Source: Eubacteriales bacterium (GTDB lineage: Bacteria > Bacillota > Clostridia > Oscillospirales > QAKW01). Taken from it: 48,943 nucleotides of DNA. The translations under genes were made by a program, and so were the position numbers. Position 1 is the first letter of the stretch, and every line of letters begins with the position of its first letter. Shown in pieces: positions 17,232 through 31,721 of this stretch. The DNA is taken from assembly GCA_045544795.1 (NCBI GenBank), contig JAZPZR010000123.1:1-48943 (forward strand). The letters run 5' to 3'. Below the pieces are notes generated by a model. It was not told the origin of the DNA. It searched no databases and was given only the letters and a program-made list of their open reading frames with translations.

Positions 17232-17406
17232 AAAAAGACTGCAGTATCCGCTTAAAATAAAAAAGGGTGACGGCAATACTGCGAAAATAATAATGTCGCA
17301 GTTTGGCGGACCTGACGGAGAGCTTGCCGCTTCGCAGCGTTATCTTTCGCAAAGATATGCGATGCCCTACAGCGACGTAGCAACACTTTTAACTGACGTG
17401 GGCACC
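17218..17406 (+). pseudogene. cotJC: cotJC 5' segment (codons 1-63), interrupted by the integrated element
   Basis: MWKYEKRLQYPLKIK..GGPDGELAASQRYLSQRYAMP..LLTDVGT is a CotJC/Mn-catalase-family N-terminus with SD gggagga. Similarity ends at 17406, and the rest of the tracked ORF (to 17493) is antisense to the recombinase gene. Confidence 0.9.
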
Positions 17407-19046
17407 TTCGTTTCTAAAGCGGTACACTTGTATGTAGGAGCCACCGTTTTGGATACGGTGAACCTCCATTTTTCGGGCAGAATATTTAGGTAAAGGTCAA
17501 CAGTATTCTTGTCAACAATCACCATCTTATCAAGAATGCGCTTGTAGAATTCATCCTCATACTCAACGCCGTTTACAAGGTCGATGATTGCCTTTTCAAT
17601 ATCCGCAAACAACTGCTCTTGCTGAACCTTCAAGGTGTTGCCATTGGTGATACTGTCAATTTGGGTCTTGATGTCAGTCATCACTCCGTCAATCTTTTCA
17701 CGTTCTGCAAGAAACTCCCCTTTGTCAATGTTACCCTCCATATACAATTCCAAAAGCCGACTGCGCTTGCTGCTCATTTCATCCAGCTTCTTTTGAAGCT
17801 GTTTTGTACTGCTATTCAGCGATTGATCGGAAAGTACAGATTTTATGACTTTTAAAAGATTTCGGGTGATTTTCTCACGGTTGAATTTTAGGTTTTTCAC
17901 CGCAAGATACATAATGTGAATGGCTTCTTCATTGCGAATGCTTGGACTTGTACAACCCACTTCATTACCTGCTTTGTCAAGGTGTTTGCTACCGTGCTTT
18001 GCCGCCTCACCACAACGCCACGCCTTGTATCTGCTACCGTTTTGACGTGGTTTATAACGTGCAACATAACTTCTGCCACAAACTCCGCATTTGATTTTTC
18101 CCGAAAATGGATAGCGGTTAGAGTGTTTAGCTTTGCCTTCCGGCGAAAGAGCACGCCCATCTAAAATGCGATTAGCCTCCTCAAACATTTCTCTTGAAAC
18201 GATCGGCTCGTGATGGTCTCGGATGATGACAAATTCCTCCTCACCGTGATTGTACTTTTTTTCGTGAGTCAAATAATCGGGAGTGATTGTTTTCTTCTGT
18301 ACAAGGTCACCACAATATTTTTCATTGCGCAGGACTCTCAGTATTACGGTGTTACTCCATTCCTGCACCCTTAACGGTTTTATTCCTTCTTCACGGAGCT
18401 CTCTTGCAATGGTGTGAGTACCTTTTCCCTCATTGATGCACTTGTGGTATATCAAGCGCACGATTTTTGCGCCTTCTTCATTGATTGTCATTTTACCGCC
18501 CTTTACATCATAGCCTAACATATCTCGACCAAAAACGACACCATCCTCCATACGTCGCTTCTGACCCCATTTCACGCGTTCCGAAGTTCTTCGGCTTTCG
18601 TCTTGGGCAAGAGATGCCATTATGGTTAATCTCAACTCTGCATCGGGGTCACGGGTATCGAGATTATCCAGGACAAAAATCACACCTACACCGTATCTTT
18701 TCAATTCTCTTGTGAAGCTTATGCTATCAAGGGTATTACGGGCAAATCTTGAAATTTCTTTTGTGATGATCAGATCAATCTGCCCATTCTTTGCACATTC
18801 GATCATCCTTAAAAATTCCTTGCGGTGTTTGGTGCTTGTGCCCGAAACACCCTTGTCAGCAAATATCTCCGATAGCTCCCAATCGGGATGATTTTCAATG
18901 TATTCTTTGAAATACTTTTGCTGACTCTCGTACGAATTCGCTTGGTCTCTGTTGTCTGTACTAACACGGCAGTAGGCGGCTACCCGTTGTACCTTGTTTT
19001 CAAATTTTCGCTCTTGGTTTAAAAGCTCATATTTGTCTAAACTCAT
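17367..19046 (-). CDS. large serine recombinase (integrated-state isoform, 559 aa)
   Basis: Resolvase catalytic N-terminus (VAAYCRVSTDNRDQANSYESQ), recombinase domain, zinc-ribbon Cys cluster (CGVCGRSY..WRCGE) and coiled-coil. SD aaggag. The last 9 codons plus the stop lie in host cotJC DNA beyond attL. Confidence 0.92.
   Translation of the reverse strand: MSLDKYELLNQERKFENKVQRVAAYCRVSTDNRDQANSYESQQKYFKEYIENHPDWELSEIFADKGVSGTSTKHRKEFLRMIECAKNGQIDLIITKEISRFARNTLDSISFTRELKRYGVGVIFVLDNLDTRDPDAELRLTIMASLAQDESRRTSERVKWGQKRRMEDGVVFGRDMLGYDVKGGKMTINEEGAKIVRLIYHKCINEGKGTHTIARELREEGIKPLRVQEWSNTVILRVLRNEKYCGDLVQKKTITPDYLTHEKKYNHGEEEFVIIRDHHEPIVSREMFEEANRILDGRALSPEGKAKHSNRYPFSGKIKCGVCGRSYVARYKPRQNGSRYKAWRCGEAAKHGSKHLDKAGNEVGCTSPSIRNEEAIHIMYLAVKNLKFNREKITRNLLKVIKSVLSDQSLNSSTKQLQKKLDEMSSKRSRLLELYMEGNIDKGEFLAEREKIDGVMTDIKTQIDSITNGNTLKVQQEQLFADIEKAIIDLVNGVEYEDEFYKRILDKMVIVDKNTVDLYLNILPEKWRFTVSKTVAPTYKCTALETKVPTSVKSVATSL
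17398..17406. repeat. attL core (GTGGGCACC)
   Basis: Identical to 31302..31310, at the point where cotJC similarity stops. Confidence 0.85.
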
Positions 19047-19496
19047 AATAAAAACTCCTTAATGTATAATGAAAGCCGAGATGTTACTCTCGGCTGTTGT
19101 TTTCTTCTCTATATGTTTTCTCGATTCTTTCTATGCAGGTATTCATCTGTTGCGGTGAAAGCAACTTGTTTTCTTTGAGCGATATCAAAATCGCTGTAGC
19201 AATTTTCAATTCCGCTTCCGGAGTGTTCACCTCCGGAATTACGCCAAGGTCATAATTCTTGTATTTCGTGAAAACACCCCCTACTGCAAATATATGATAA
19301 GAGGCTTCTCAATATCATAATATATGCTCATAAATCAAGTTATATCGGGGGCAATATTCAATTTTCTAAATATTTGCCCGCAAATTTAAGTGAAATTTGA
19401 GAGCAATGTGGTATAACCACAAGCCGAAGGATGCTTTACACATTCTCATTCCTTCGGTAACTTCCCGACTCTTTCATCGGGAACTTTAATTGATAG

Positions 19497-19814
19497 TTAA
19501 ATTGCTTTAATCATAACGACACGGGAGCGAAGTTCCGGTGTCTGTGCACCATCTTTTACGATAAAAACAACTTTTTGACCGATCAAATCGTCATCAACGA
19601 AATTTCCTTCTTCATCAACAAAATCTGAAGCAAAATCATTGAATATAGGGTTTATGGTTGAGAACGACGTGTTGAAGATAGCATTATCTGTACGGATATC
19701 TACAGCAAAATAACCTTTATCCTCATAAAAATCGATTTTCTCAACTGTTCCGGTATATCTACCTTCTTCTAAATAGTTAGTGTATTTCTGGGGTTTAAAA
19801 TTAAATGTAGCCAT
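19497..19814 (-). CDS. hypothetical small protein (105 aa)
   Basis: Start moved to the ATG at 19814 with SD aaggagaca, 13 nt after the helicase stop. No family recognised. Confidence 0.65.
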   Translation of the reverse strand: MATFNFKPQKYTNYLEEGRYTGTVEKIDFYEDKGYFAVDIRTDNAIFNTSFSTINPIFNDFASDFVDEEGNFVDDDLIGQKVVFIVKDGAQTPELRSRVVMIKAI

Positions 19815-19827
19815 AATATGTCTCCTT

Positions 19828-21606
19828 TCAATTTTCAATAATGGCATTAGTGAATTCTTCAAACAAATCAATATCACCAAGTTCCGCTTCAATATCTCTT
19901 TGCGGTGCTTTGGTGGATTGATTTTGAATTGAGTTTTCGAGCTTGAAACAATAGCATTTCTGCCGTCCAACCTCTTTTACCAAAGTTACCCTTTTATAAA
20001 GCCTATCCGGCTCTGTTAGTAAAACATCTTGATCTTTCAGCGTTTTAAGTACGCCTTTCCAATCATTTACGCCGTAGTCTTCCATCATATCCTCAAACAC
20101 CGTTTGTGATATCTGAATTTCGCTGTACTTATACTTGGTTTTGATGGCTCCACAGCAGGATGATGGTACAACGTTGGTATCAATCATATAGCGTGAACTA
20201 TTTCGGCTGACCTCTTGACGAACAATCTCAAGCAAACGGTCTTCCGGTTTGGCTGCTGTAGTGATTTGCCTTTCTAATTTCAAAAGATAATCAGCAATAT
20301 CATCCTCGTTGATACCCATTTGAAATATGTCATTGACGTAACGTGCCGTAGTAAGTACAGTCGCAAGCTTTGAAAGAATACGCTCGGAAAGCTCTTTTTT
20401 ATCTGTACACTTATCGCAAAGATATTTTTTATCCTTTTCGTAATCATCAAAAACATCGTCGCCCTTTTGAAGCAAGTACTTTACAAAAGGTTCACCTGCG
20501 AGGGCATAATTCTCATAAATGCAAGATTTAATGTTATCACTGTTCTCCGCACTATCGGTCAAAGTATCTTTAATTTCAAATACGCGCGCCTTTATTCCAT
20601 TAGGTGTATCCGCTCCTGAAACGAGACTAAATTCTGCTGTTGAAATTACTATTCCATTAAATTCCATGACATCTTTCTGCGTGGCATCACCATTCAATCT
20701 CATTTTTGTTCGTCCGTTACAAACGCTGTACATTGTTCGGTTGAAGTCCTTAATATTACTCAACGCAACCTCATCAATAACAACCGTATGACCACCACAA
20801 CTCGAAATAAACTGGTTTAAAGCGTTCTCTGTTGCATTGTACGATATAGCACACCCACGATTCAAAATAGGGTTGGAAAATGCACTTATAGCCATTTGGG
20901 CACCAGTTGTTTTTCCCTTTGAACTTTTATTTGATAACGAAAACATTATGCTGGATATATCTTTCTTTTCATTTAAAAGAGCTACAAGAGCACCCGCAAA
21001 TCCAAGAAGCATAACTACTGTCATTGCTATACTTTTCAGTACTTCTGTTTTCACCATATTGAGCCATAATTCAAGTTCTCCGGTTGGCTTTAAATCAAGC
21101 TTTCCATCGAATTTTAATCCTTTATAAACGCCTTCGGCACTTAATGCAGAATGTCCCCTGAACAGTTTTATATCTCCATCCTTGCTCCATCCAAGTTTTG
21201 AATAAGAACGATTTATAGGGGCAATCCTTTCGCTTTTCAAAAGGTATTTCACCACTTTGTAGGCATCATCTTCAGCAAAGCGAACACCATACTTATATAG
21301 TTCCTTTACTCCAAGTTTGGTTAAAATATCGCAATCAAAAACTCTTTCGACTGCAGTCTTTCCGTCATAATATCGGATTTTTAGTTTTACTACGCCCGTA
21401 TCAGTCTCAACGAGCCTTTCTACCACCTCAATACCGGTAGCAAAAACCGTTATAGAATAATTATCATCTAATTTTGATAATTGACCAACCCAACGGTTGC
21501 CGTTAACATACGGAAAAACTGTTGTTTCACGCTTTAATCGTTCGTAATCTTCCTTGTCTATTGAGATAGTTCCCAAATGCTTTGCATCATCAATATTAAA
21601 ACTCAC
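19828..21606 (-). CDS. DUF927-like P-loop NTPase (putative SF3 replicative helicase or replication initiator)
   Basis: 592 aa; GTG start with SD aaggagg. Walker A SSKGKTTGA and Walker B HTVVIDEV. Size and layout resemble the helicase-type proteins of integrative elements. The family call is from memory. Confidence 0.7.
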   Translation of the reverse strand: MSFNIDDAKHLGTISIDKEDYERLKRETTVFPYVNGNRWVGQLSKLDDNYSITVFATGIEVVERLVETDTGVVKLKIRYYDGKTAVERVFDCDILTKLGVKELYKYGVRFAEDDAYKVVKYLLKSERIAPINRSYSKLGWSKDGDIKLFRGHSALSAEGVYKGLKFDGKLDLKPTGELELWLNMVKTEVLKSIAMTVVMLLGFAGALVALLNEKKDISSIMFSLSNKSSKGKTTGAQMAISAFSNPILNRGCAISYNATENALNQFISSCGGHTVVIDEVALSNIKDFNRTMYSVCNGRTKMRLNGDATQKDVMEFNGIVISTAEFSLVSGADTPNGIKARVFEIKDTLTDSAENSDNIKSCIYENYALAGEPFVKYLLQKGDDVFDDYEKDKKYLCDKCTDKKELSERILSKLATVLTTARYVNDIFQMGINEDDIADYLLKLERQITTAAKPEDRLLEIVRQEVSRNSSRYMIDTNVVPSSCCGAIKTKYKYSEIQISQTVFEDMMEDYGVNDWKGVLKTLKDQDVLLTEPDRLYKRVTLVKEVGRQKCYCFKLENSIQNQSTKAPQRDIEAELGDIDLFEEFTNAIIEN

Positions 21607-21678
21607 TTATAAGCCTCCTTTTCTTTATTCTCCGACGTGCTGTTACACACGCCGGAGTTATAAGTATATTTATTATTA

Positions 21679-22059
21679 TCAAAAAAATAATTCCGGATGT
21701 CGATACAGCTTTGTATAATACTTGATTTGCTCATCCGATAATGAGTAGAAGTCATCATCATCGGGAGGAGCAGAACATAAAAAGAACGTTCCGCAAACTA
21801 TATCGTAGACTTTACCATTTTCATCCCGTAATGCACGGTTTGGTGTAAGTCCAAGGTTTTTTCCCTCCTCGTTACAAATCAACGCTATAGAATCATCAAA
21901 CGGATATACGACTTGAAAATAATCGCCAACCACTTTCTGCATTGCGTCTAAAGTTTTTTCAATTTCCTTAACTCTGGGGACTTGAAAGGGTTCGATAACA
22001 AGTATTTTCATTTTGTTCTTCGTGGTTTTCTTCAGATTGTTCGTTGTTGGCATATACAT
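21679..22059 (-). CDS. DUF3846-domain protein (paralogue 1)
   Basis: 126 aa; SD aaggagg 8 nt upstream of the ATG at 22059. Clearly similar over most of its length to the ORF at 23211..23543 (shared ALICNEEGK.LGL..NRALRDE.G..YDIVCGTFFLCSAPPD). Confidence 0.75.
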   Translation of the reverse strand: MYMPTTNNLKKTTKNKMKILVIEPFQVPRVKEIEKTLDAMQKVVGDYFQVVYPFDDSIALICNEEGKNLGLTPNRALRDENGKVYDIVCGTFFLCSAPPDDDDFYSLSDEQIKYYTKLYRHPELFF

Positions 22060-22098
22060 TGTAATGCCTCCTTTTTGTTATATTTTTTCTCGTCTGCC

Positions 22099-22129
22099 AA
22101 AAGAAAAAGACCGTCCATATTGGACGGTC
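22099..22129 (-). terminator. intrinsic terminator
   Basis: Minus strand reads gaccgtcca-ata-tggacggtc followed by tttttctttt. Lies 40 nt upstream of the DUF3846 start. Confidence 0.8.
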
Positions 22130-22345
22130 GAAAGAGACTTATCGTATCTAACCCACATTATCAAGTTACCCCTCACGTGTTGTAGCAAATAGTTGTGTCC
22201 TACCTATACGGATTGGCAAAAGAATATAGCAAGGCTAAATACGGTTGTCTTCTTTCGACAGCCGAGTATGTAAGAGATGCTATATTCTCTATCATAGGGT
22301 TTTATTTAAAATCAGTTATCATTAATCATGTTCATTGTTGCATCT
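22099..22345 (-). ncRNA. candidate ~240-nt non-coding leader/sRNA (promoter to terminator, no credible ORF)
   Basis: Bounded by the promoter at 22353..22381 and the terminator at 22099..22129. An 11-bp stem (agaatatagca/tgctatattct, 22231..22290) encloses a second hairpin. Only 3- to 7-codon ORFs are present. Confidence 0.45.
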
Positions 22346-22352
22346 TGGTTAT

Positions 22353-22381
22353 ATGATAGCACGTGACGTTCAAAAAGTCAA
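22353..22381 (-). promoter_or_regulatory. candidate sigmaA promoter
   Basis: Minus strand: TTGACT, 17 nt, TATCAT. Confidence 0.5.
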
Positions 22382-22682
22382 ATGGTCGATTTTTAGGCAT
22401 TCGTCAAAATTACTAACACCTCCTGTAGCAGTCAATTAGGAAGCGGAGGGGATGATGATACTTTTTTAATGATTTTTTTCTGTTGTTTAGTATTCTGAAA
22501 AAATATTTTTTGTGCAATCTGCCATGAATTTTTCACGTTTTCTTAATCAGAAACGGGGATTTCCATCCTTTTCGGATAGTTTTCGGGGAGCTTTTGACCG
22601 CCATTTCCCTTTTCAAAAAAAGATCAACCCGAAAACCCGTTCTCCCAGAGCGTGCATTGGCACACTCCGGGGGGCTATGAAA

Positions 22683-23177
22683 TCAATCAAGTTTCAAGGG
22701 TTCTATTGTGAAATCGTGAGCAAGAGGACTAAGGGGATGGGCGTATGGCAGTCCTTTACGATCGACAAGAGTATAAAGTTTCTTTTTGTATGGTATGAGT
22801 TCGGTAAGCATTGCTGCTTTTTCATCCTGGTAGCTCGTTCCTCTACCAAAACAAACTAAAATACAATCTGCTTTTTCACACTCTTGTAAAATAATTTCTT
22901 TATTCTGCTTTGATGTTTTTTGATTATCCCCATAAATAGATGACGTAAGATTTACAATTGTCAAACTCCCAAAATCGTTTTTGACGGCTCCGTTTTTGCA
23001 CAACATCGTTGTTTGATCCATAATCAAATGATCCGCCGATGATGGAGCAGTCATAATAATTACCGCCGACTTTTTTCTATGATCCCACTCCATTTTAAGC
23101 AGAAACCTTTCGCTGTTCTTTTGATTAAAGATAGCGGTAGTGGTTATTGTAGATGTCTTTTCCACTAAATTACTCAT
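22683..23177 (-). CDS. DUF1643-domain protein
   Basis: 164 aa; ERFLLKMEWD..AVIIMTAPSSAD..DQT...SLTIVNL...HPLSP pattern typical of DUF1643. The family call is from memory. Confidence 0.7.
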   Translation of the reverse strand: MSNLVEKTSTITTTAIFNQKNSERFLLKMEWDHRKKSAVIIMTAPSSADHLIMDQTTMLCKNGAVKNDFGSLTIVNLTSSIYGDNQKTSKQNKEIILQECEKADCILVCFGRGTSYQDEKAAMLTELIPYKKKLYTLVDRKGLPYAHPLSPLAHDFTIEPLKLD

Positions 23178-23210
23178 TTTTAAAATCTCCTTTATATTTA
23201 ATCTTCTGTA

Positions 23211-23543
23211 TTACAAAAATAATTCTGGGTGTTGATACAGCTTAGTAAAATGCTCAATTTGCTCATTTGATAACGAGGAAAAGTTTTCTTCATCGGGTGG
23301 AGCAGAGCATAAAAAGAACGTTCCGCAAACAATATCATAAATTTCTCCACTTTCATCTCGTAAAGCACGATTAAGCGGAAGTCCAAGAAGTTTTCCTTCC
23401 TCATTGCAAATCAACGCTACTGAATCTTCAAAGGGATAGATCGCTTGAATATAACCGCCAACCTCTTTTTGCATTGATTCCAAAGATGACTCAATCTCTT
23501 TAACTTTGGGAGTTTGCATAGGTTTAATAACAAGTATCTTCAT
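23211..23543 (-). CDS. DUF3846-domain protein (paralogue 2)
   Basis: 110 aa; paralogue of 21679..22059. Starts 3 nt after the preceding gene. Confidence 0.75.
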   Translation of the reverse strand: MKILVIKPMQTPKVKEIESSLESMQKEVGGYIQAIYPFEDSVALICNEEGKLLGLPLNRALRDESGEIYDIVCGTFFLCSAPPDEENFSSLSNEQIEHFTKLYQHPELFL

Positions 23544-23545
23544 TT

Positions 23546-23884
23546 TTACCCCTCCATTAAATGTTCGAAATATTCCCTGCGACCAATGATATTGATCGCT
23601 CGGTCATTATCCAATACAATGCATGAATTGACAAAATTATTTCCAATATATTCTATCCACTCAAATCGGCTTTCATCAATCGGCATCGACAATCCAAATC
23701 CAAAATGATTATCCAAATCACTTTTAGAACTAATTAAATAAATCGCCCCAATGCTTTCAATCGAAGCATTGGGGCAGTATTCTTTATATTCTTCCAAAAG
23801 GTATTCTAAAAGATTTTTGATGTATGGAACGATCTCCTTTTCCGGCACTTGTTCCAAATGATCTAAACGTGTAATCTTAACCAT
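23546..23884 (-). CDS. hypothetical protein (112 aa)
   Basis: ORF tightly packed in the operon. Its ATG directly abuts the TAG of the upstream mini-ORF. No family recognised. Confidence 0.6.
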   Translation of the reverse strand: MVKITRLDHLEQVPEKEIVPYIKNLLEYLLEEYKEYCPNASIESIGAIYLISSKSDLDNHFGFGLSMPIDESRFEWIEYIGNNFVNSCIVLDNDRAINIIGRREYFEHLMEG

Positions 23885-24004
23885 CTATTTTCTTCTCCTA
23901 TTCCGTGGCGTTTTAGAACCGCAATACAATGAGATCGCCGCACTTGCTCCCATACCGAACGCTTCTAATGCCGCCTTTGATAGTCTTAAGAATAACGCTA
24001 TCAT
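23885..24004 (-). CDS. 39-aa hydrophobic peptide with an Arg/Lys tail
   Basis: MIALFLRLSKAALEAFGMGASAAISLYCGSKTPRNRRRK; SD aaggagg; ATGA overlap with the upstream mini-ORF. Below the ORF-track cut-off and hand-translated. Confidence 0.45.
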   Translation of the reverse strand: MIALFLRLSKAALEAFGMGASAAISLYCGSKTPRNRRRK

Positions 24005-24096
24005 TTTTCTTTCCTCCTTTTCGACCTTTCAAGTATTGCATCTGCTCCAATCAAAAGACCAAACACACTAAAAAATCCAATTAAGTAATATTTCAT
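24001..24096 (-). CDS. 31-aa single-TM peptide with a basic tail
   Basis: MKYYLIGFFSVFGLLIGADAILERSKRRKEK; weak SD gaaggt; translationally coupled (ATGA) to the next mini-ORF. Confidence 0.4.
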   Translation of the reverse strand: MKYYLIGFFSVFGLLIGADAILERSKRRKEK

Positions 24097-24120
24097 TTTT
24101 AAAACCTTCTTTCATTTAAG

Positions 24121-24159
24121 ATAAAAAATACACCCACTGTATTACTCAGTGGGTGTATT
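24121..24159 (-). terminator. intrinsic terminator after the collagen-like gene
   Basis: 12-bp stem atacacccactg/cagtgggtgtat followed by a T-run on the minus strand. Confidence 0.7.
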
Positions 24160-24163
24160 TTGT

Positions 24164-27100
24164 TTAACGTTTAAACTGTGGATAGTATGTATATCCACTA
24201 ACAGTTTCAGAGTTTTTCATCGTTTTAGCAATTTTAGCCGTATCTGATACAGATATGTTTGCCCAAGCGGTTGATGCTTGTATAACAAGATCAAGATTCA
24301 CTTTGACTGCACGCTTTTTCCAATCTGTTTCATTAAGGAAATCCACTTCAGTTAATCCGGCATTGTAGAATGCTTGTGTGTCTATTTGCGTTACCTTTTC
24401 GGGTATAGTGATATTTGCCAATGAGGAACATCCGTAAAACGCTTTTGCACTAATTGATGTGAGATTGTTAGAAAGTGTTACATCTGTTAACGCTTCGCAA
24501 TATGCAAAAGCACCCTGTCCCATTTCTGTTATCGAATTAGGCATAGTCACACTCTTTAAATATTTACAATTCTGAAATCCTCCTATAGCAATAGTTGTTA
24601 TTGGGATTCCGCCAAACGATTCGGGAATAACGACGTTTTCTATTATCTGCTTATAATCTGATTTGACTCCCACAGACAAAGTTCCATCACTCAAACGTGT
24701 AAAGCTTAACATTGTCACAGCGTCAGAATAATCGTTGTACGCTGGGCTGATTTTACCAAGATTGCTTTCAGTTCCATCTGTATATGTAATGATTAACTCG
24801 CCATTTACAATTTTGCTTTCTGCAATACCTCTACCATCAGCTCCGGGATCTCCTTTGTCACCCTTATCGCCTTTATCGCCTTTATCTCCCTTGTCACCTT
24901 TTTGACCTTTAATATTGCCGAGGTTAATAACAGATGTATCGGTCAAGGTAACCGAAAGATCTCCGTCTGCAGACAATGTAATGGTATCAATTCCGACTCC
25001 GTTTGTACCTTCCTTACCATTTGCACCATCTTTTCCATTGTCTCCAACCACTTTTCCTACGGTGGTTAATGTTCCATCTGAGAAACCTAATACCAGTTCA
25101 CCATCTGTGTTAATAGCGGATGACGTAACACTAACACCATCTTCACCATCAATACCGTTTGTTCCCTTGATATTTCCTAAATCAATGATCGTACCATTTG
25201 TGAGTTCAATTTTCAAAACGCCTTCCGTAATAGTGACGTTTTTAACGCCTACACCATCGGTACCGTTTGCGCCATCTTTACCGTTGGATCCATTGGCACC
25301 TACCACCTTACCTACATTTGTGCTATTACCATTGGAATAGGTGAGCACAAGTTCTCCAATTTCATTGATTTTAGAAGAAACAATGCTAATACCGTCTTGA
25401 CCGTTAATACCATCAGTCCCCTTAATATTACCTAAGTCAATAATAGAACCATTGGTCAATTCGATTTTTAAAATGCCATCAGTAATCGTTGCGGTTTTAA
25501 TACCAACGCCATCTGTGCCGTTAGTACCATTTGTTCCATTAGCACCGTCTGCGCCATCGGCTCCCACCACCTTGCCAACATTGGTACTATTGCCGTTGGA
25601 GTATGTAAAAACAAGTTCACCATTAGCGTTGATTATAGCAGAGGTTACACTAATACCATCTGTGCCATCGGCTCCTTTTACGTTGCCGAGAGTCAAAATC
25701 GTTCCATTGGAAAGCTTTACAGTCAAAATACCATCATCGGACATTTCAACAGTATCAATGCCGACACCGTCTTTGCCATCTTGACCGTCGGCACCATTTG
25801 TGCCATCAACACCGTCTTTTCCGTCCTTGCCGTTGGTACCATCTTTACCGATAATATTGCCTAAATTCAGATCATTACCGTTAGAAAACGTAAGCACTAA
25901 CTCTCCTGATGTATTGATGGTTACATCAGATATTCCTATTCCATCTTTACCATCAACACCATCGGCTCCGTCTTTACCATTTGTGCCATTAGCACCATCT
26001 TTACCATCAGTACCGTCAATACCATCCTTGCCGTCTTGACCGTCTGCACCTACAACTACACCGAGGTTTTCATTTGTGCCGTTGGAATAATAAACAATCA
26101 ATTCTCCGTTAGCATTAATTTCAGTTTTTGTAACACTAATTCCATCTTTACCATTGGTGCCATCAACGCCGTTTTCACCATCTTTTCCTACGACCACCCC
26201 AAGATTTTCAGAAGTGCCATTGGAATAGGTAATAACAAGTTCGCCGTTTTCATTGATTGTGGTATTACTTACACCAATACCATCTTTACCATCGGTTCCA
26301 TCGGCTCCGTCCTTGCCGTTAGATCCATTTATACCATCCTTACCGTTGGAACCGACAACTATTCCAAGATTTGCAGAAGTTCCGTCCGTATAGGTAATTA
26401 TAAGTTCACCGGCAGTATTGATTTCAGTTTTGGAAACACCGATGCCGTCTTCACCGTCAACACCATTTTTGCCGTCTTTGCCATCTTTGCCGTCTTGTCC
26501 GTCTGCGCCATTAGTACCATCTTTACCGTCAATACCATTGATACCATCTTTTCCATTAGTACCGTCTTTGCCTACAACAACACCAAGATTGGTAGAAGTA
26601 CCATCAGAATAGGAAATAACAAGCTCTCCGTAGGAATTGATAGTTGTACCGGAAACACCTACGCCATTTAGTCCGTCTTTACCATCCGTGCCGTCGATGC
26701 CATCCTTTCCATCTTTGCCGTTAATACCATCTTTGCCATCGGCGCCCTTGATATTTCCAAGCTTTAGAGTAGAACCATTAGTAAGGGTGATTTCCAACTC
26801 TCCGGTCGTGGTAACTACAATAGAACCAATACCGACACCATCGGCACCATCCTTACCATCTATACCATTAACTCCATCTTTACCATTAGTACCATTGATG
26901 CCATCTTTTCCATCAATACCATTGACCCCATCTTTTCCGTCCTTACCATCGGCACCGATAACGACTCCAAGATTCTCAATAGTACCATTGGAGTAGGAAA
27001 TGATAAGTTCACCTTTTTCATTGATAGTTGTATCGCTTATACTTACGCCATCTTGACCATTTGTGCCGTTGGCACCATCACTTCCAATAACAATTCCAAC

Positions 27101-28513
27101 ATTCTCGGTTTTTCCATTGGTATAAGTAATGACAAGCTCGCCGTTTGAATTGATTTCTGTTTTTGATACACCGACTCCGTCAGTTCCATTTATACCGTCT
27201 TTTCCGTCAAGTCCATCTGCTCCGTCCTGACCGTTTGCGCCATCTTTACCATCGGCTCCAATCACAACACCGAGATTTTCTATTTTATTGTCGGAATAAG
27301 TTAATACAAGTTCACCTTTAGAGTTGATTTCAGATTTAACAATACTTACGCCATCTTGTCCGTCTGCACCATCAGTACCGTCTTTACCGTCCTGACCATT
27401 CGTTCCGTTCGTACCATTGATGCCATCTTTACCGGCAGCACCAATTACATTGCCAAGGTTAGAACGTTGATTGTTTGAATATGTCAAAACAAGCTCACCG
27501 TCAGAATTGATCTCTGCGCCGATAACACTAATGCCATCTTTTCCGTTTGTGCCATCAGTTCCATTTTGACCGTCAGCACCGATTACAACGCCGAGATTCT
27601 TAATAGTGCCGTTAGAATATGTAAGTACCAATTCTCCGGAGGTATTAATCGTTGACTCAACAATGCTGATTCCATCAATACCGTTTACACCATCCTTGCC
27701 ATCGGTACCGTCAATACCATCCTTGCCGTCAGCACCATCAACACCATTTGTTCCATTTATGCCGTCTTTGCCATTTGCACCGATAACTACACCCAAATTA
27801 GCACTCTGACCATTAGAATAGGTCAACACCAATTCGCCTTTTTCATTGATTGAAGACTTTGTTACACTAACACCGTCAACACCGTTCATCCCAACAACTT
27901 TGTCAAGATTCACAGTTTTACCATCGGAGAACGACAAAATAAGTTGACCATTATCATTGATGGTTGCAGATGTAATTCCAATGCCATCCTTGCCATTGGC
28001 ACCATCTTTACCATTGGCTCCATCTTTGCCATTTGTGCCATTAGTTCCGTCTTTTCCGTTCGCACCATCGGCACCGTCTTTACCTACTGCGACACCTAAA
28101 TTAATCACAGAGTTATCAGAAAGGGTAATCAAAAGCTCCCCTTTAGATGAAAATGATGCTGTTTTAATCGTAGTTCCCACTTGCTCGTTTCTCGCTTGCA
28201 ATGAGGCGAGCCACTCTTCTTCTGTCCCACTATATCCATTTTCAACTGCAATTTCATAAGCGGATTTTCCATTCAAGGAATCAAGCCACTCCTGAACAGT
28301 TCCGGAATATCCGTGTTGAACAGCCAGCTCATATGCCGACAATCCATTTTCTACTGTTGTTGAAGCAGGTACAGAATTACCTTTGAAGAATGAAGCAATT
28401 CCAAAACCACCGCCGATAAGCAAAAGAATTATAATTACTGCAACTAACAGTATCTTTATCAAATTATTTCTCTGCTTTTGTTCTTCTTTTCTTTCCATTT
28501 CTGTATGTTCCAT
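24164..28513 (-). CDS. membrane-anchored collagen-like repeat protein with a C-terminal BspA-type leucine-rich-repeat domain
   Basis: 1449 aa. N-terminal TM helix (LIKILLVAVIIILLLIGGGFGIASFF). Two SAYE(L/I)AV..GYSGT..EWL.SL motifs as seen in tail-fibre-like proteins. About 22 alternations of a G-X-Y run (GKDGxNGxDG...) with a ~20-aa module (GELVLTYSNGxxxNLGVVxG), then GDKGDKGDK. C-terminal LRR (FQNCKYLKSVTMPNSITEMGQGAFAYCEALTDVTL...). Confidence 0.9.
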   Translation of the reverse strand: MEHTEMERKEEQKQRNNLIKILLVAVIIILLLIGGGFGIASFFKGNSVPASTTVENGLSAYELAVQHGYSGTVQEWLDSLNGKSAYEIAVENGYSGTEEEWLASLQARNEQVGTTIKTASFSSKGELLITLSDNSVINLGVAVGKDGADGANGKDGTNGTNGKDGANGKDGANGKDGIGITSATINDNGQLILSFSDGKTVNLDKVVGMNGVDGVSVTKSSINEKGELVLTYSNGQSANLGVVIGANGKDGINGTNGVDGADGKDGIDGTDGKDGVNGIDGISIVESTINTSGELVLTYSNGTIKNLGVVIGADGQNGTDGTNGKDGISVIGAEINSDGELVLTYSNNQRSNLGNVIGAAGKDGINGTNGTNGQDGKDGTDGADGQDGVSIVKSEINSKGELVLTYSDNKIENLGVVIGADGKDGANGQDGADGLDGKDGINGTDGVGVSKTEINSNGELVITYTNGKTENVGIVIGSDGANGTNGQDGVSISDTTINEKGELIISYSNGTIENLGVVIGADGKDGKDGVNGIDGKDGINGTNGKDGVNGIDGKDGADGVGIGSIVVTTTGELEITLTNGSTLKLGNIKGADGKDGINGKDGKDGIDGTDGKDGLNGVGVSGTTINSYGELVISYSDGTSTNLGVVVGKDGTNGKDGINGIDGKDGTNGADGQDGKDGKDGKNGVDGEDGIGVSKTEINTAGELIITYTDGTSANLGIVVGSNGKDGINGSNGKDGADGTDGKDGIGVSNTTINENGELVITYSNGTSENLGVVVGKDGENGVDGTNGKDGISVTKTEINANGELIVYYSNGTNENLGVVVGADGQDGKDGIDGTDGKDGANGTNGKDGADGVDGKDGIGISDVTINTSGELVLTFSNGNDLNLGNIIGKDGTNGKDGKDGVDGTNGADGQDGKDGVGIDTVEMSDDGILTVKLSNGTILTLGNVKGADGTDGISVTSAIINANGELVFTYSNGNSTNVGKVVGADGADGANGTNGTNGTDGVGIKTATITDGILKIELTNGSIIDLGNIKGTDGINGQDGISIVSSKINEIGELVLTYSNGNSTNVGKVVGANGSNGKDGANGTDGVGVKNVTITEGVLKIELTNGTIIDLGNIKGTNGIDGEDGVSVTSSAINTDGELVLGFSDGTLTTVGKVVGDNGKDGANGKEGTNGVGIDTITLSADGDLSVTLTDTSVINLGNIKGQKGDKGDKGDKGDKGDKGDPGADGRGIAESKIVNGELIITYTDGTESNLGKISPAYNDYSDAVTMLSFTRLSDGTLSVGVKSDYKQIIENVVIPESFGGIPITTIAIGGFQNCKYLKSVTMPNSITEMGQGAFAYCEALTDVTLSNNLTSISAKAFYGCSSLANITIPEKVTQIDTQAFYNAGLTEVDFLNETDWKKRAVKVNLDLVIQASTAWANISVSDTAKIAKTMKNSETVSGYTYYPQFKR

Positions 28514-28523
28514 AATTTTTACC

Positions 28524-28823
28524 TCACTTATTGTTTTGGTCTATATTCTCTTTAAGGATCTTTTTGATCCATTTTTCGGTGTAACCGTATTTTAGAGCAA
28601 GTTGCTTAACATTGTAACCGTTGTATTCTTCAATGATTTGCTTTCTTATGAATTCTCTACTGAACAAATCCACAGGGAAGAATATCTGTTGACCTCGGTA
28701 TGTAGAATGAATTTTCAACACCGCATCAATTCCAATTAAATTCGCAAGTTCACTATATGCGGAATTTAGATACTCTCCTTTAATAACCTTGGGATCCATC
28801 GACACTCGTAATTCACCTCTCAT
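28524..28823 (-). CDS. Mor-family transcriptional activator
   Basis: 99 aa; C-terminal HTH ..YNGYNVKQLALKYGYTEKWIKKIL.. typical of Mu Mor/C-like activators. Ends 10 nt upstream of the collagen-like gene. Confidence 0.7.
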   Translation of the reverse strand: MRGELRVSMDPKVIKGEYLNSAYSELANLIGIDAVLKIHSTYRGQQIFFPVDLFSREFIRKQIIEEYNGYNVKQLALKYGYTEKWIKKILKENIDQNNK

Positions 28824-28929
28824 TTTTCGACACTCCTTTCTAAATTATATTACTATTTATAGGAACTGTGTAGAGCCGCACTTCCCCGAATAGTTCCTTG
28901 TAAAATTCCATAGTTTTCCTAAAGCAAAC

Positions 28930-29037
28930 AGACGACAATCCGGTCTTTGCGCACAGAAACACGGTTGCACGCTACTAAAGCGTGCAGGTTTCGTGTTTCG
29001 ACAGTTTTAACTGTTGCGCAAAACCAAATTGTCGTCT
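28930..29037. other. 108-nt nested inverted-repeat structure (candidate origin, oriT or structured RNA)
   Basis: Perfect nested stems: agacgacaat/attgtcgtct (10 bp), tttgcgca/tgcgcaaa (8), gaaacacg/cgtgtttc (8), tgcacgct/agcgtgca (8), plus the side hairpin acagtt-tt-aactgt. Confidence 0.6.
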
Positions 29038-29058
29038 CAAATAAAAAAGCACCCGACA

Positions 29059-29087
29059 TTACCTACCGTGTGCTTCAAGATTATAAT
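29059..29087 (+). promoter_or_regulatory. candidate promoter with a conserved spacer motif (twin at 36406..36434)
   Basis: TTACCT, 17 nt, TATAAT. The spacer ccgtgtgcttcaag is identical to 36413..36426. Confidence 0.45.
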
Positions 29088-29165
29088 ATGTATTCAAGAT
29101 TTTCTATGATCCAATGTTTTTTGTTTTAAAAACCTCAATATTTTTTTGAATTTTTTCAACAAAAG

Positions 29166-29194
29166 TTGCATTTTTGCAACTTTTAATATATAAT
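29166..29194 (+). promoter_or_regulatory. near-consensus sigmaA promoter with an overlapping operator palindrome (HD operon)
   Basis: TTGCAT, 17 nt, TATAAT. The palindrome aagttgc-N6-gcaactt (29163..29182) overlaps the -35. Confidence 0.6.
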
Positions 29195-29257
29195 ACAGGT
29201 GAAATATGCTGAATTAGTTTGTCTAAGTTCTGGCAAAATCACTTGAAAGGGGAATGT

Positions 29258-30547
29258 ATGTATCAATTTAGAGATCCTATCCATGGATTTATCAATGTAT
29301 CTGATGGCGAATTAAAAATCATAAACTCTTTCCCTTTTCAAAGGTTAAGAAATATACGTCAATTAGCAACTACATATCTTGTTTATCACGGTGCAGAACA
29401 TACGAGATTTGGACATTCATTAGGAGTTATGCATCTAACCTCTCGCGTTTTTGATTCTATCACAAGGAAAGTTCCCAACCTTTTTTCTGATGATGAAAAG
29501 GAAAATGAAATTAAAATTCTTTGGTATCGTCAAATCTTGAGACTGATCGGTCTCACTCATGATCTTGGACACGCACCTTTTTCTCATGCTTCAGAAGAAT
29601 TATTTGAAGATGGAAAGAAACACGAAGATTATACTAAACAAATTATATGCGAGACTGTTGTTGCTGATCATATAAATGAGATAGGTAAAAAGTTTCAAGA
29701 ACAATATGGTCCCACATATGAAATCACACCTGAGCTCATTTGGATGATTTATGACGGAAAAGATGTAGCAAATGAAAAATTTATAATGCCGGACTTTCTT
29801 TTTTTGAAAAGCTTTATGGATGGCGAATTAGATTGCGACAAAATGGATTATCTTCTCCGTGACTCGTTGTACTGCGGTGTTACATACGGCAAATATGATT
29901 TGGATAGATTTGTTTCAACGTTAACAGCCTATAAATATAAAAAAGAAAATCGTTTGCAAATCGCCATTGAAAGAGGCGGTGTGCAAGCTTTAGAAGAATT
30001 TGTTTTAGCTCGTTATTTTATGTTTATCCAAGTCTATTTTCACAAAACAAGAAGATATCTGGATAAAGCACTTTTTAGTGCGATGCAAGCAATTCTTCCA
30101 AATAAAAAATTCCCTATTGATACAAATGAGTATTTACAATGGAATGATAACCGTATTCTTAATGAAATTGCTTCATCAGCAGCAGATGAAGTTTTATCCT
30201 TTAAAAACAGAAATATTATGACTTGCGTTTACGAGTCGCCAGCACACGCTGAAGCTTCCACAAAGTTCCTTTTAACTACGTTAAGAGAGAAATATGGAAA
30301 AAATATCTTATGTGATAATGTAGACAAAGCGGCTCATAAGCTCAGCCCCGCACTCTTATCTCGTAAAGACGATAGTGGTAAAGGCATTATGATTTACGAT
30401 GAGAAAACTGGCGATGTCACTAATATTATGGAGGAATCTATCATCTTAGGTTCTATTATAAAGCCTATTAGCATCAAAAGAGTTTATGCTGTTAAAGAAA
30501 TAGCTGACGATGTAATTGCAACAATAAAAAAACTTAGTGCAGAGTAA
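29258..30547 (+). CDS. HD-domain dNTP triphosphohydrolase-like protein (SAMHD1/EF1143/YwfO type)
   Basis: 429 aa from the ATG at 29258. FRDPIHGFI...FQRLRNIRQL....GAEHTRFGHSLGV, HDLGHAPFSH and DCDKMDYLLRDS are the hallmark motifs of this HD subfamily. Confidence 0.85.
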   Translation: MYQFRDPIHGFINVSDGELKIINSFPFQRLRNIRQLATTYLVYHGAEHTRFGHSLGVMHLTSRVFDSITRKVPNLFSDDEKENEIKILWYRQILRLIGLTHDLGHAPFSHASEELFEDGKKHEDYTKQIICETVVADHINEIGKKFQEQYGPTYEITPELIWMIYDGKDVANEKFIMPDFLFLKSFMDGELDCDKMDYLLRDSLYCGVTYGKYDLDRFVSTLTAYKYKKENRLQIAIERGGVQALEEFVLARYFMFIQVYFHKTRRYLDKALFSAMQAILPNKKFPIDTNEYLQWNDNRILNEIASSAADEVLSFKNRNIMTCVYESPAHAEASTKFLLTTLREKYGKNILCDNVDKAAHKLSPALLSRKDDSGKGIMIYDEKTGDVTNIMEESIILGSIIKPISIKRVYAVKEIADDVIATIKKLSAE

Positions 30548-30573
30548 CAATATATTATAAGGAGGTAGGAGTA

Positions 30574-31062
30574 ATGGTAAATAATAATGCTATCATCAAT
30601 ATAATTCATAAAATAACAGCAAAAAATACTGCTCCTTGCAAAAAAACTTTGCAAAAAATCGTTTTCTTAATACAAGCAAAAGGTGAAGATTTAGGTTGCG
30701 ATTATGGTATTCACTTTTTCGGTCCATATAGTGCCGATCTTGATTATGCAGTACGTGAACTAAGCGATGAAGGTGTTTTAAACACCGCATATACTTCAAT
30801 GGTACATCGTATTTCCGTCGCAGAAGAAGCAGAAATACAAGAATATCACAATGCAACAGTAGATTCTGTAGTAGACGAATTTGCAGGGGACACTCCCAGT
30901 GAGTTAGAACTCCTCGCAACCGCTCTTTATGCATATATAAGCCTAAAAGATATATCTAAAATAAAACCTACTGTTATTAAGATTAAAGGATCAAAATATT
31001 CTGAAGCTCGAATCGATTCTGCAATAAAACGATTGAAAAAAATGAATTATATATCTGCATAA
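30574..31062 (+). CDS. small partner protein, YwgA/Panacea(DUF4065)-like (tentative)
   Basis: 162 aa; strong SD aaggagg, 26 nt after the HD gene. KKTLQKIVFLIQ...FFGPYSADLDYAVRELSDEG resembles winged-helix phage-associated antitoxin-type domains. The family call is from memory. Confidence 0.55.
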   Translation: MVNNNAIINIIHKITAKNTAPCKKTLQKIVFLIQAKGEDLGCDYGIHFFGPYSADLDYAVRELSDEGVLNTAYTSMVHRISVAEEAEIQEYHNATVDSVVDEFAGDTPSELELLATALYAYISLKDISKIKPTVIKIKGSKYSEARIDSAIKRLKKMNYISA

Positions 31063-31066
31063 CTTA

Positions 31067-31098
31067 ATCCCCCGAAGTTACATACTTCGGGGGATTTT
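31067..31098 (+). terminator. intrinsic terminator of the HD operon
   Basis: atcccccgaagt-tacat-acttcgggggat followed by tttt. Confidence 0.8.
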
Positions 31099-31309
31099 AA
31101 AATGTTTCCGGTACAGATACAAAAATTCGAATCGTTTTAGCCTTTCCACGCTTTTTGACTGTGGGGTGTTCAGAGAATTCTACCTGATTTTCTACACCGT
31201 ATCGGATCACCTTGTCACGTGTCTTAATCGTATCTACAAGAAAGCCGAAAAAGCGGGGCTTGTCCGTTTTATAAATAGAATGGAACATTTCCGAGCATAA
31301 GGTGGGCAC
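31097..31309 (-). other. latent 3' coding segment: 67 codons that become the recombinase C-terminus after excision/circularisation
   Basis: Stop-free 70-codon frame that begins inside the attR core, in the same phase as the recombinase frame crosses the attL core. No SD of its own. Confidence 0.55.
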
Positions 31310-31310
31310 C
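31302..31310. repeat. attR core (GTGGGCACC)
   Basis: Identical to 17398..17406, and cotJC similarity resumes immediately after it. Confidence 0.85.
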
Positions 31311-31721
31311 GAAGAAATGGCTCATATGGAAATGGTGTGCGCCATGATTCAGATGCTGACGCGCGATCTTTCTACTACCGAGATCGAAAAGGCGGGGCTT
31401 GCACCCTACTTTGTCGACCATACGATAGGACTCTGGCCGCAGTCGTCGGGCGGACTTGACTTTTCAGCAAGATACTTTCAGTCAAAGGGCGACCCGATAA
31501 CCGACCTCACCGAAGATATGGGCGCAGAGCAAAAGGCGCGTACGACCTATGATAATATCTTAAGACTTATAGACAATCCCGACGTAAAGGATGCAATAAG
31601 ATTCCTTCGCGAGCGTGAGATAGTCCATTTTCAACGCTTCGGTGAAGCGCTTCGTAACGTGACCGAGCGTCAGGACAGTAAAAACATCTACGCGATAAAC
31701 CCCGCGTACGATAAAAAATAA
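31311..31721 (+). pseudogene. cotJC: cotJC 3' segment (136 codons plus stop)
   Basis: EEMAHMEMVCAMIQML...QSKGDPITDLTEDMGAEQKARTTYD...FLREREIVHFQRF is the CotJC/Mn-catalase-family C-terminal two thirds. In phase with 17218..17406. Confidence 0.9.

Follow-up and report, generated by a model that had tools for sequence, protein, structure and literature searches.

The window analyzed here, which throughout denotes the whole stretch of 48,943 nt from contig JAZPZR010000123.1 of a Eubacteriales bacterium, an uncultured member of the Clostridia from the gut, contains at positions 29161-31096 a self-contained bicistronic unit with both open reading frames (ORFs) on the forward strand. The first gene (29258-30547) encodes a protein of 429 residues with the Pfam domains HD and HD_assoc_2, predicted to be a deoxynucleoside triphosphate (dNTP) triphosphohydrolase of the SAMHD1/EF1143/COG1078 type. 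The second (30574-31062) encodes a protein of 162 residues from the YwgA family, a stand-alone homologue of the C-terminal domain (CTD) of DarG and a divergent relative of Panacea. The genes are separated by 26 nt and form one transcription unit, and each has its own ribosome-binding site (RBS), GAAAGGGGA at 29245-29253 for the HD gene and AGGAGG at 30560-30565, 8 nt 5' of its ATG, for the small gene. A TTG at 29219 would extend the HD protein to 442 residues, but as all 13 aligned homologues begin with M-x-x-F/Y-RDP we assign its start to the ATG at 29258. Homologues are found down to E = 1e-95 (small protein) and, in a solved structure, to 9e-57 (HD protein), so that both ORFs are genuine genes rather than chance occurrences. 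An earlier note on this DNA, made from the sequence alone, had placed both ORFs where we find them, and all the motifs it quoted are present: DPIHG, FQRLRNIRQL, HTRFGHSLGV, HDLGHAPFSH and DYLLRD in the HD protein, and LQKIVFLIQ and FFGPYSADLDYAVRELSDEG in its partner.

Compared with solved structures, the HD protein matches 2HEK with E = 8.8e-57, EF1143 from E. faecalis with 6.9e-38, and furthermore 2Q14 and many SAMHD1 entries at about 1e-20, one of them at 2e-21. The blocks that align with the solved dNTPases are FQRLR..QL, H.RF.HSLGV, HDLGH.PFSH, HE, D.DK.DY..RD and RY.M..QVYFH. The metal ligands of the HD domain, H53, H101-D102 and D194, fall on the corresponding EF1143/SAMHD1 motifs, and at least 95% conservation among 109 family members is found for R50, H53, H101, D102, H105, H110, H122, E123, D194, Y198, D202, R252, Y260 and H262, as well as for Q28, R29 and R31. 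K195 is likewise aligned with the solved dNTPases and is invariant in a 13-sequence alignment from Clostridia. We take R50, H53, H101-D102, H105, H110 and H122-E123 to be the equivalents of SAMHD1 R164, H167, H206-D207, H210, H215 and H233-E234, and D194, K195, Y198, D202, R252 and Y260 those of D311, K312, Y315, D319, R366 and Y374; the numbering of SAMHD1 is that of the literature, and the alignment itself was computed here. Residues Q28, R29 and R31 are presumably the counterparts of allosteric-site residues in SAMHD1, and their conservation may hint at nucleotide-driven oligomerization, which we consider suggestive only.

The earlier assignment of the HD protein to the SAMHD1/EF1143 family is thus upheld, with metal, catalytic and substrate residues all conserved. 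Its match to the dGTPase model of PADLOC amounts to 38 bits and is confined to the N-terminal 100 residues, and the protein is to be classed with the SAMHD1/EF1143-type enzymes and not with the Dgt type. The C-terminal 120 residues are specific to its clade. Among the related structures 2HEK, from Aquifex, is deposited as a 'hypothetical protein', and 2HEK, 2Q14 and 9MR6 are without an assigned activity. Purified EF1143 is described as an active dNTPase (PMC3190883), and the conserved residues lead us to infer a dNTP triphosphohydrolase activity for the window protein as well.

The partner protein of the window yields no Pfam match, and an exact look-up of its 162-residue sequence returned no record. 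The DarG models, however, are matched in their C-terminal half, with E = 1.4e-8 in NCBIfam (positions 171-312 of 338) and 1e-10 in PADLOC. The family it belongs to comprises 298 clusters at 50% identity and E < 1e-3. Among the best 150 of these the full-length members are stand-alone proteins, mostly of 160-195 residues, and no HD-YwgA fusion was found in the 150 best representatives, all of 42-248 residues. In a set of 119 representatives, 115 match the DarG model and 40 match PF13274 (SocA_Panacea; best E 6.7e-8), and several close homologues are labelled 'uncharacterized protein YwgA' by JGI. The description of the partner as YwgA- or Panacea-like consequently fits the family, and the profile searches did identify HD and HD_assoc_2 in the enzyme and DarG in the partner, although the window protein itself shows no match to PF13274 at E <= 0.1.

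An AlphaFold2 (AF2) model of the partner based on the family alignment reached a pLDDT of 97.3 and a pTM of 0.92. When this model was submitted to Foldseek, the sole significant PDB match was to chains B/D of 7YK3 (E 5e-5, TM 0.73), the DarG CTD in the DarT-DarG complex of M. tuberculosis; all others had E > 0.1. The family profile matches 7YK3_B with E = 6.6e-13, and the two have the signature QK / YGPYS / ELLxxT / KxKG in common. The positions of this common signature are those that are near-invariant in 109 partners, namely Q27, K28, G50, P51, S53, L56, L111, E112, T116 and K138. The N-terminal half of the model follows a helix-helix-hairpin-helix-hairpin layout. Judged by sequence and predicted fold, the partner is a homologue of the toxin-binding CTD of DarG over its whole length, stands alone and can be placed at the edge of the Panacea/DUF4065 superfamily. 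In DarG it is the CTD that binds DarT and thereby inhibits it, and the DUF4065 proteins are homologues of this domain (PMC13621843, 2026). In the window the partner carries neither a macrodomain nor a nucleotidyltransferase (NTase) domain, and the gene upstream is an HD gene instead of DarT. With a net charge of about -2 it is neither basic nor markedly acidic, so that mimicry of single-stranded DNA need not apply to it.

The linkage of the two genes was analyzed in homologous loci retrieved from genomes, metagenomes and viral contigs, coded L### below. A locus search of genomes with single sequences gave no loci, and these were obtained with narrower alignments as queries. Starting from the HD side, 77 of 80 loci carry a YwgA-like ORF directly 3' on the same strand, two lie at contig ends and one (L101) is without it. 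An adjacent partner is therefore present in 77 of 78 informative loci (about 99%) from at least ten phyla, among them Acidobacteriota, Desulfobacterota, Nitrospirota, Planctomycetota, Actinomycetota, Chloroflexota and Gemmatimonadota, with Chromatiaceae and Acidithiobacillus also represented. The tight coupling that the earlier note had seen is hence no peculiarity of this locus. Starting from the partner side, in 46 distinct genome loci from Oscillospiraceae, Lachnospiraceae, Christensenellales, Selenomonadaceae and other Clostridia, the HD gene directly precedes the partner gene with seven exceptions, of which three have no HD gene (L009, L033 and L052), one retains its last 140 codons (L005) and three are at contig ends (L007, L018 and L045). 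The rule still holds where partner identity has dropped to 28-30%.

Calculated for 109 unique pairs, the identity matrices of the two proteins correlate with r = 0.95 (Mantel 0/999), at a mean identity of 43% for the HD protein and 29% for the partner. Of the 109 pairs, 106 have their genes spaced by -20 to +38 nt, which like the 26 nt of the window stays within the 100 nt used to define a Panacea two-gene locus, and 42 pairs overlap. As evidenced by the near-obligate linkage and the correlated identities, the two genes are passed on as a pair and diverge in step, and partner-swapping is not apparent, whereas Panacea antitoxins have been described as hyperpromiscuous in their choice of partner. 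By its distribution the operon appears to be ancient and widespread across bacteria. Orphans are asymmetric: partner genes remain beside a deleted or truncated HD gene in five loci (L005, L009, L033, L052 and L154), while a single HD gene within the partnered clade (L101) stands alone.

In the window the pair is found some 200 bp away from attR, the right attachment site, of a serine-recombinase element of 13.9 kb (17398-31310) that interrupts a cotJC-like Mn-catalase gene, so the location at the right end of a mobile element claimed in the earlier note is correct. The identical 9-bp core GTGGGCACC occurs at both junctions, as attL at 17398-17406 and as attR at 31302-31310. Of the catalase gene, the 5' part (ORF from 17209) stops with '...LLTDVGT' at 17406, and the 3' part (31302-31721) opens with '(V)GTEEMAHMEM...' at 31302. 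With the gene split and the same core at either junction, the HD operon is to be regarded as attR-proximal cargo of an integrative element. The flanks have a GC content of 45-53%, the region from about 17.4 to 31.3 kb one of 33-43%, and the pair itself one of 33%.

Mobile or defence genes adjoin the pair in 8 of 12 contexts from the close clade, the window included, a raw count within the 12 contexts for which per-gene Pfam labels are available; the other loci were read with a crude ORF caller. The neighbours comprise type I restriction-modification (R-M) genes followed by a phage capsid gene and a serine recombinase (L063), resolvase/recombinase fragments with a WYL protein (L065), an insertion sequence (IS) transposase (L150), a retron reverse transcriptase with an STM3845 effector (L151), integrase fragments with prophage remnants (L152), Cas9 upstream and an SLFN-type helicase downstream (L153), and a phage holin upstream of the pair (L162). 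Members of the window clade occur in unrelated taxa, with an HD protein of 71% identity in Selenomonadaceae and partners of 60% and 59% in Pyramidobacter porci and in a member of the Peptococcaceae, which argues for horizontal transfer. Gut Clostridia thus harbor a mobile sub-clade, with members that neighbour defence genes and lie near att at the ends of integrative elements.

The earlier note had also pointed to a parallel with ywfO-ywgA of B. subtilis, and this could be substantiated in Priestia megaterium (L158). Here the gene order is pta, lipoate ligase, rsfA, DUF1450, HD (435 residues), a 169-residue protein, 2-hydroxymuconate tautomerase, site-2 protease, YwhD and PBP1A, a block that we take to correspond to the ywf/ywg/ywh region of the B. 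subtilis map. The record is labelled 'plasmid', which is a mis-labelling. The 169-residue protein following the HD gene at the ywfO position scores 84 bits on the family profile. The Priestia pair combines the same two families, with gene order and tight coupling preserved. It differs from the window pair in location, as it sits in the pta...ponA block and not on a serine-recombinase element, and in sequence, with 33% identity (E 2e-50) between the HD proteins and about 26% between the partners. In B. thuringiensis (L157) the tautomerase gene comes right after the syntenic HD gene, with no YwgA-like ORF in any frame, and a YwgA-like neighbour is also missing beside the genes of the EF1143 type in Enterococcus, Listeria and Staphylococcus (L146-L148). 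The partner has apparently been lost in several lineages of Bacilli.

These partner-less relatives bear on the direction of regulation. Because EF1143 is active and has no partner gene beside it, the partner should be dispensable for catalysis in the EF1143 branch, and for this reason it would regulate, most simply restrain, the enzyme rather than complete it. A precedent exists in the Clover system, where the dNTPase CloA is restrained by the partner gene CloB (PMC12265719). With competent relatives that lack the partner, the 5:1 asymmetry of the orphans and the precedent of Clover, we favor restraint as the direction in which the partner acts.

The reading that we prefer, tentatively and with a probability somewhat below even, is that of a partner-gated nucleotide-depleting enzyme that serves as a defence and/or addiction module on the element. 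In this model the product of the first gene would be a SAMHD1/EF1143-type enzyme that cleaves dNTP to deoxynucleoside and triphosphate, and the product of the second would bind it directly and hold it in check, as the DarG domain does with DarT. With a strong RBS of its own the partner is expected to be at least as abundant as the enzyme. Once the restraint was lifted, the dNTP pool would collapse and DNA replication, be it of an invader or of the cell, would stop; possible triggers are phage infection, loss of the element or an arrest of protein synthesis. On the element the pair might then act in defence against phages and other mobile genetic elements, in addiction, or in both, and we consider either role plausible for this copy. 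A wider version, in which YwgA-type proteins are dedicated inhibitor-sensors of a pan-bacterial SAMHD1-like clade and form a hitherto unrecognized, non-promiscuous branch of the Panacea/DarG-CTD antitoxins, the whole being a widespread nucleotide-depletion immune or abortive system that was mobilized in gut Clostridia and is disarmed by some prophages inserting into the HD gene, is rather unlikely.

A considerable body of observations weighs against a role of the pair in defence or addiction, and many of them favor instead its main competitor, a housekeeping regulator of the dNTP pool (for example in stationary phase or sporulation) that has YwgA as a regulatory or adaptor subunit and hitchhikes on the element. 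The pair is no speciality of mobile elements: the operon extends over many phyla and often stands among housekeeping genes, its identity tiers roughly track taxonomy, the HD protein is well conserved with 49-75% across Clostridia, and the family looks largely chromosomal and old. Loci L020, L061, L163 and L164 have housekeeping or biosynthetic surroundings, synteny does not extend beyond the two genes, and 150 neighbour ORFs from 45 loci fall into 167 Pfam families without a conserved theme, mostly metabolic and with few recombinase or R-M genes (the PADLOC scan of these neighbours counts profile models, not loci). In the Bacillaceae the HD gene belongs to the conserved syntenic block described above, with or without ywgA, and ywfO is listed among the genes that co-evolve with polC. 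The pair is nearly absent from phage, plasmid and viral collections. A single-sequence tblastn search with the partner found none in 50,697 phage and 72,556 plasmid records, with the HD protein as query these records gave only distant EF1143-type relatives of at most 36% identity, many of them mis-labelled chromosomal sequences, and the partner or the pair was present in 2 of 2.9 million viral contigs. Moreover, the persistence of the HD gene alone in several lineages of Bacilli indicates that it is not intrinsically lethal there, and the HD protein remains below the curated dGTPase cut-offs, with 30 bits against 400 for the anti-phage model NF041026 and 39 against 152 for TIGR01353. A survey of the literature on YwgA, ywfO, COG1078 and Panacea combined with HD or dNTP yielded no experimental study of the pair or its members. 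Set against a housekeeping function are the homology of the partner to domains with a known toxin-neutralizing role, the position of the window copy as low-GC, att-proximal cargo, the mobile or defence genes in two thirds of the labelled contexts and the horizontal transfer of the clade; on balance such a function has a substantial chance of being correct, though we place it behind a gated module.

The control signals of the operon are relevant to two further explanations. A putative sigma-A-type promoter precedes the HD gene on the forward strand (29166-29194), with TTGCAT at 29166-29171, a 17-nt spacer and TATAAT at 29189-29194. Its -10 element agrees with the consensus in all six positions, but the -35 element does so in only three of six with respect to TTGACA, so that the site as such is real while its earlier description as near-consensus was too strong; the low score of the -35 element also explains its absence from the consensus scan. 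The -35 element is overlapped by a perfect palindrome at 29161-29184, AAAAGTTGCA-N4-TGCAACTTTT, whose 10-nt arms are longer than previously reported and which might be a local operator. No second copy of it exists elsewhere in the window, and in the 140 nt 5' of the HD start in about 45 related loci neither a counterpart nor any other shared motif was found. Autoregulation through this palindrome as a trait of the whole family is thereby ruled out, and the claimed operator is at most a feature of the window. The homologous operons lack the conserved promoter operator to be expected of a type II toxin-antitoxin (TA) system, which is one more point to be held against a gated addiction module. 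Downstream of the small gene a terminator hairpin (31066-31096, forward strand) has a perfect 13-bp stem, a 5-nt loop and a folding energy of -23.3 kcal/mol (z = -5.3 against shuffled sequences). The hairpin is as strong as the earlier note had it, but the U-tract that follows, UUUUAAAAUGUUU, is weak, for which reason the terminator is missing from the scan list. An Rfam scan of 28500-31500 gave sub-threshold noise only.

Given the helix/hairpin layout of its N-terminal half, weak Foldseek matches (E > 0.1) to the winged helices of MarR, ScpB and ORC and the palindrome over the -35 element, the partner could be conceived as a winged-helix repressor of its own promoter. This is very improbable: the lack of conservation of the palindrome, present once in the window, weakens the case, the sole significant relative in structure and sequence is a protein-binding domain, and the partner is not basic. 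A plain type II TA system of the PanAT kind, which would stabilize the element through post-segregational dNTP starvation and do nothing else, is somewhat easier to entertain, as the order of toxin and antitoxin, their tight coupling, the orphan 'antitoxin' genes beside decayed HD genes, the excisable element and the listing of a similar pair as T34 (see below) all conform to it. It is nevertheless unlikely, in view of the missing operator, of a partner that never swaps as those of Panacea pairs do, of the many stable chromosomal contexts and of the HD genes that stand alone in Bacilli. The HD protein might also have a different chemistry and act as a phosphohydrolase on modified or non-canonical NTPs, RNA 5'-triphosphates or signalling nucleotides, with the partner presenting the substrate or setting the specificity. 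YwfO has in fact been proposed to be a pyrophosphohydrolase for RNA 5'-triphosphates or modified NTPs (PMC4993169), the nearest structure, 2HEK, lacks an assigned function, and six of the ten near-invariant positions of the partner are polar (Q27, K28, S53, E112, T116 and K138) and could form a ligand pocket. Yet all contacts of EF1143 and SAMHD1 to metal, triphosphate and deoxyribose are conserved, including Y260 (Y374 in SAMHD1), and the characterized relatives among the matches, EF1143 and SAMHD1, are dNTPases, which makes another substrate quite unlikely.

A gated nucleotide-depleting enzyme would share features with several known systems without coinciding with any of them. The combination of domains has been noted before: in Dataset S1 of Kurata et al. 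(2022) the predicted PanAT family T34, marked 'notest', pairs an 'HD domain-containing protein' (YdhJ/COG1078) with PanA in T|A order, in Ammonifex, Desulfofundulus and Caldicellulosiruptor. The view of the pair as uncharacterized is accordingly right in that no functional study was found, but its prediction as a TA pair dates back to 2022. Going by this listing, domain combination and gene order are those of the window, whereas the window partner stays below PF13274 and its bond to the HD protein is fixed and co-diverging, in contrast to the promiscuity of Panacea. The resemblance to DarTG lies in the fold and profile match of the partner to the DarG CTD and in the order of genes, enzyme first and binder second, but the window has no macrodomain and no DarT, and the enzyme is an HD phosphohydrolase and not an ADP-ribosyltransferase. 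With EF1143 and SAMHD1 the HD protein has in common a homologous catalytic core with its conserved residues and the FQRLR motif of the allosteric site; the EF1143-type genes in Enterococcus, Listeria and Staphylococcus, unlike the window gene, come without a YwgA-like neighbour. Clover and the single-gene anti-phage dGTPases would follow the same logic, an HD dNTPase kept in check by an adjacent gene or by allostery and defence by dNTP depletion. The partner in Clover, CloB, is however a nucleotidyltransferase that produces the inhibitory p3diT, while that in the window resembles the DarG CTD and has no recognizable catalytic domain. New in the present analysis are the homology to the DarG CTD, a pan-bacterial linkage of about 99% in which the two proteins co-diverge, the connection to YwfO-YwgA, the disappearance of the partner from several lineages of Bacilli and the mobile sub-clade from gut Clostridia.

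Homologues of SAMHD1 are common in bacteria, and the control that keeps such an enzyme from starving its own cell is known in few cases, through allosteric nucleotides or through the CloB signal of Clover. The present locus suggests a third way of control, by a dedicated small protein whose gene is locked to that of the enzyme. Should the partner prove to be an inhibitor or sensor, the YwfO/YwgA-type 'unknowns' of many genomes would gain a function, Panacea-like domains would be known from a partnership that is stable and co-evolving, and the nucleotide-depletion defences would include a new architecture. If the pair is a housekeeping one, it would still define a regulatory subunit for a conserved dNTPase.

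Several individual loci deserve mention. In the uncultured Clostridium sp. of L034 (3057-4391) the HD homologue contains two in-frame stops next to an intact partner gene, which makes it either a pseudogene or a case of stop-codon recoding. The YwgA-like genes of L009, L033 and L052 are intact with no HD gene nearby; that of L052 comes after a gene for a 1876-residue surface protein, and that of L009 follows an alpha-L-fucosidase gene, which also adjoins the complete pair in L163. In L164 (6686-8504) the pair is found in an unexpected neighbourhood, co-oriented in the middle of a fatty-acid/polyketide-like cluster with KAS III, ACP, SDR and FkbH. As for the viral contigs, L156 (5983-7816 in IMGVR_UViG_3300037230_000123, 32.8 kb) holds an HD protein of 421 residues (36% identity) and a YwgA-like protein of 193 residues inside a tail module, in a moron-like position between a tape-measure-like gene and one for a 1468-residue tail-fibre-like protein. 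In L154 (8550-10489 in IMGVR_UViG_3300029594_000216) the end of a prophage lysis module meets codon 191 of the HD gene, the remaining ORF starts from MDYLLRD and the partner gene has stayed whole; integration of the phage seems to have disrupted the dNTPase gene.

The element in the window carries further genes. Its large serine recombinase (17367-19046, reverse strand) consists of the domains Resolvase, Recombinase and Zn_ribbon_recom, and the final ten or so codons of this ORF extend across attL into the host sequence. The element also encodes a primase-helicase of the DUF927/Cch type, two DUF3846 proteins, a DUF1643 protein, a Mor-family activator and a protein of 1449 residues (24164-28513, reverse strand) with collagen and BspA-type leucine-rich repeats (LRR). 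The latter is made up of dozens of collagen-like G-x-x repeats that alternate with beta-rich units of about 30 residues, and of the LRR part at the C terminus, and is probably a surface or fibre protein. As a set these genes resemble the architecture of staphylococcal cassette chromosome (SCC)-like elements or of the 'intervening elements' of sporulation genes. A 16-nt direct repeat, CGAAAA(A/G)GCGGGGCTT, occurs at 31246-31261, just inside the element, and 139 nt further on at 31385-31400 in the 3' part of the catalase gene, and may be due to chance or be a remnant of similarity between attachment sites. Finally, on the metagenome contig of L162 (6404-8980) the HD-YwgA pair is directly followed by a 5'-truncated Mn-catalase gene, with a second HD protein of 643 residues and a methyltransferase encoded upstream in addition to the holin. 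Similarity to the window is confined to the pair (68% nucleotide identity) and the catalase gene (67%), and the junction lies about 35 codons earlier in the catalase than it does in the window, which suggests a family of cotJC-targeting elements that carry the pair at the same end.

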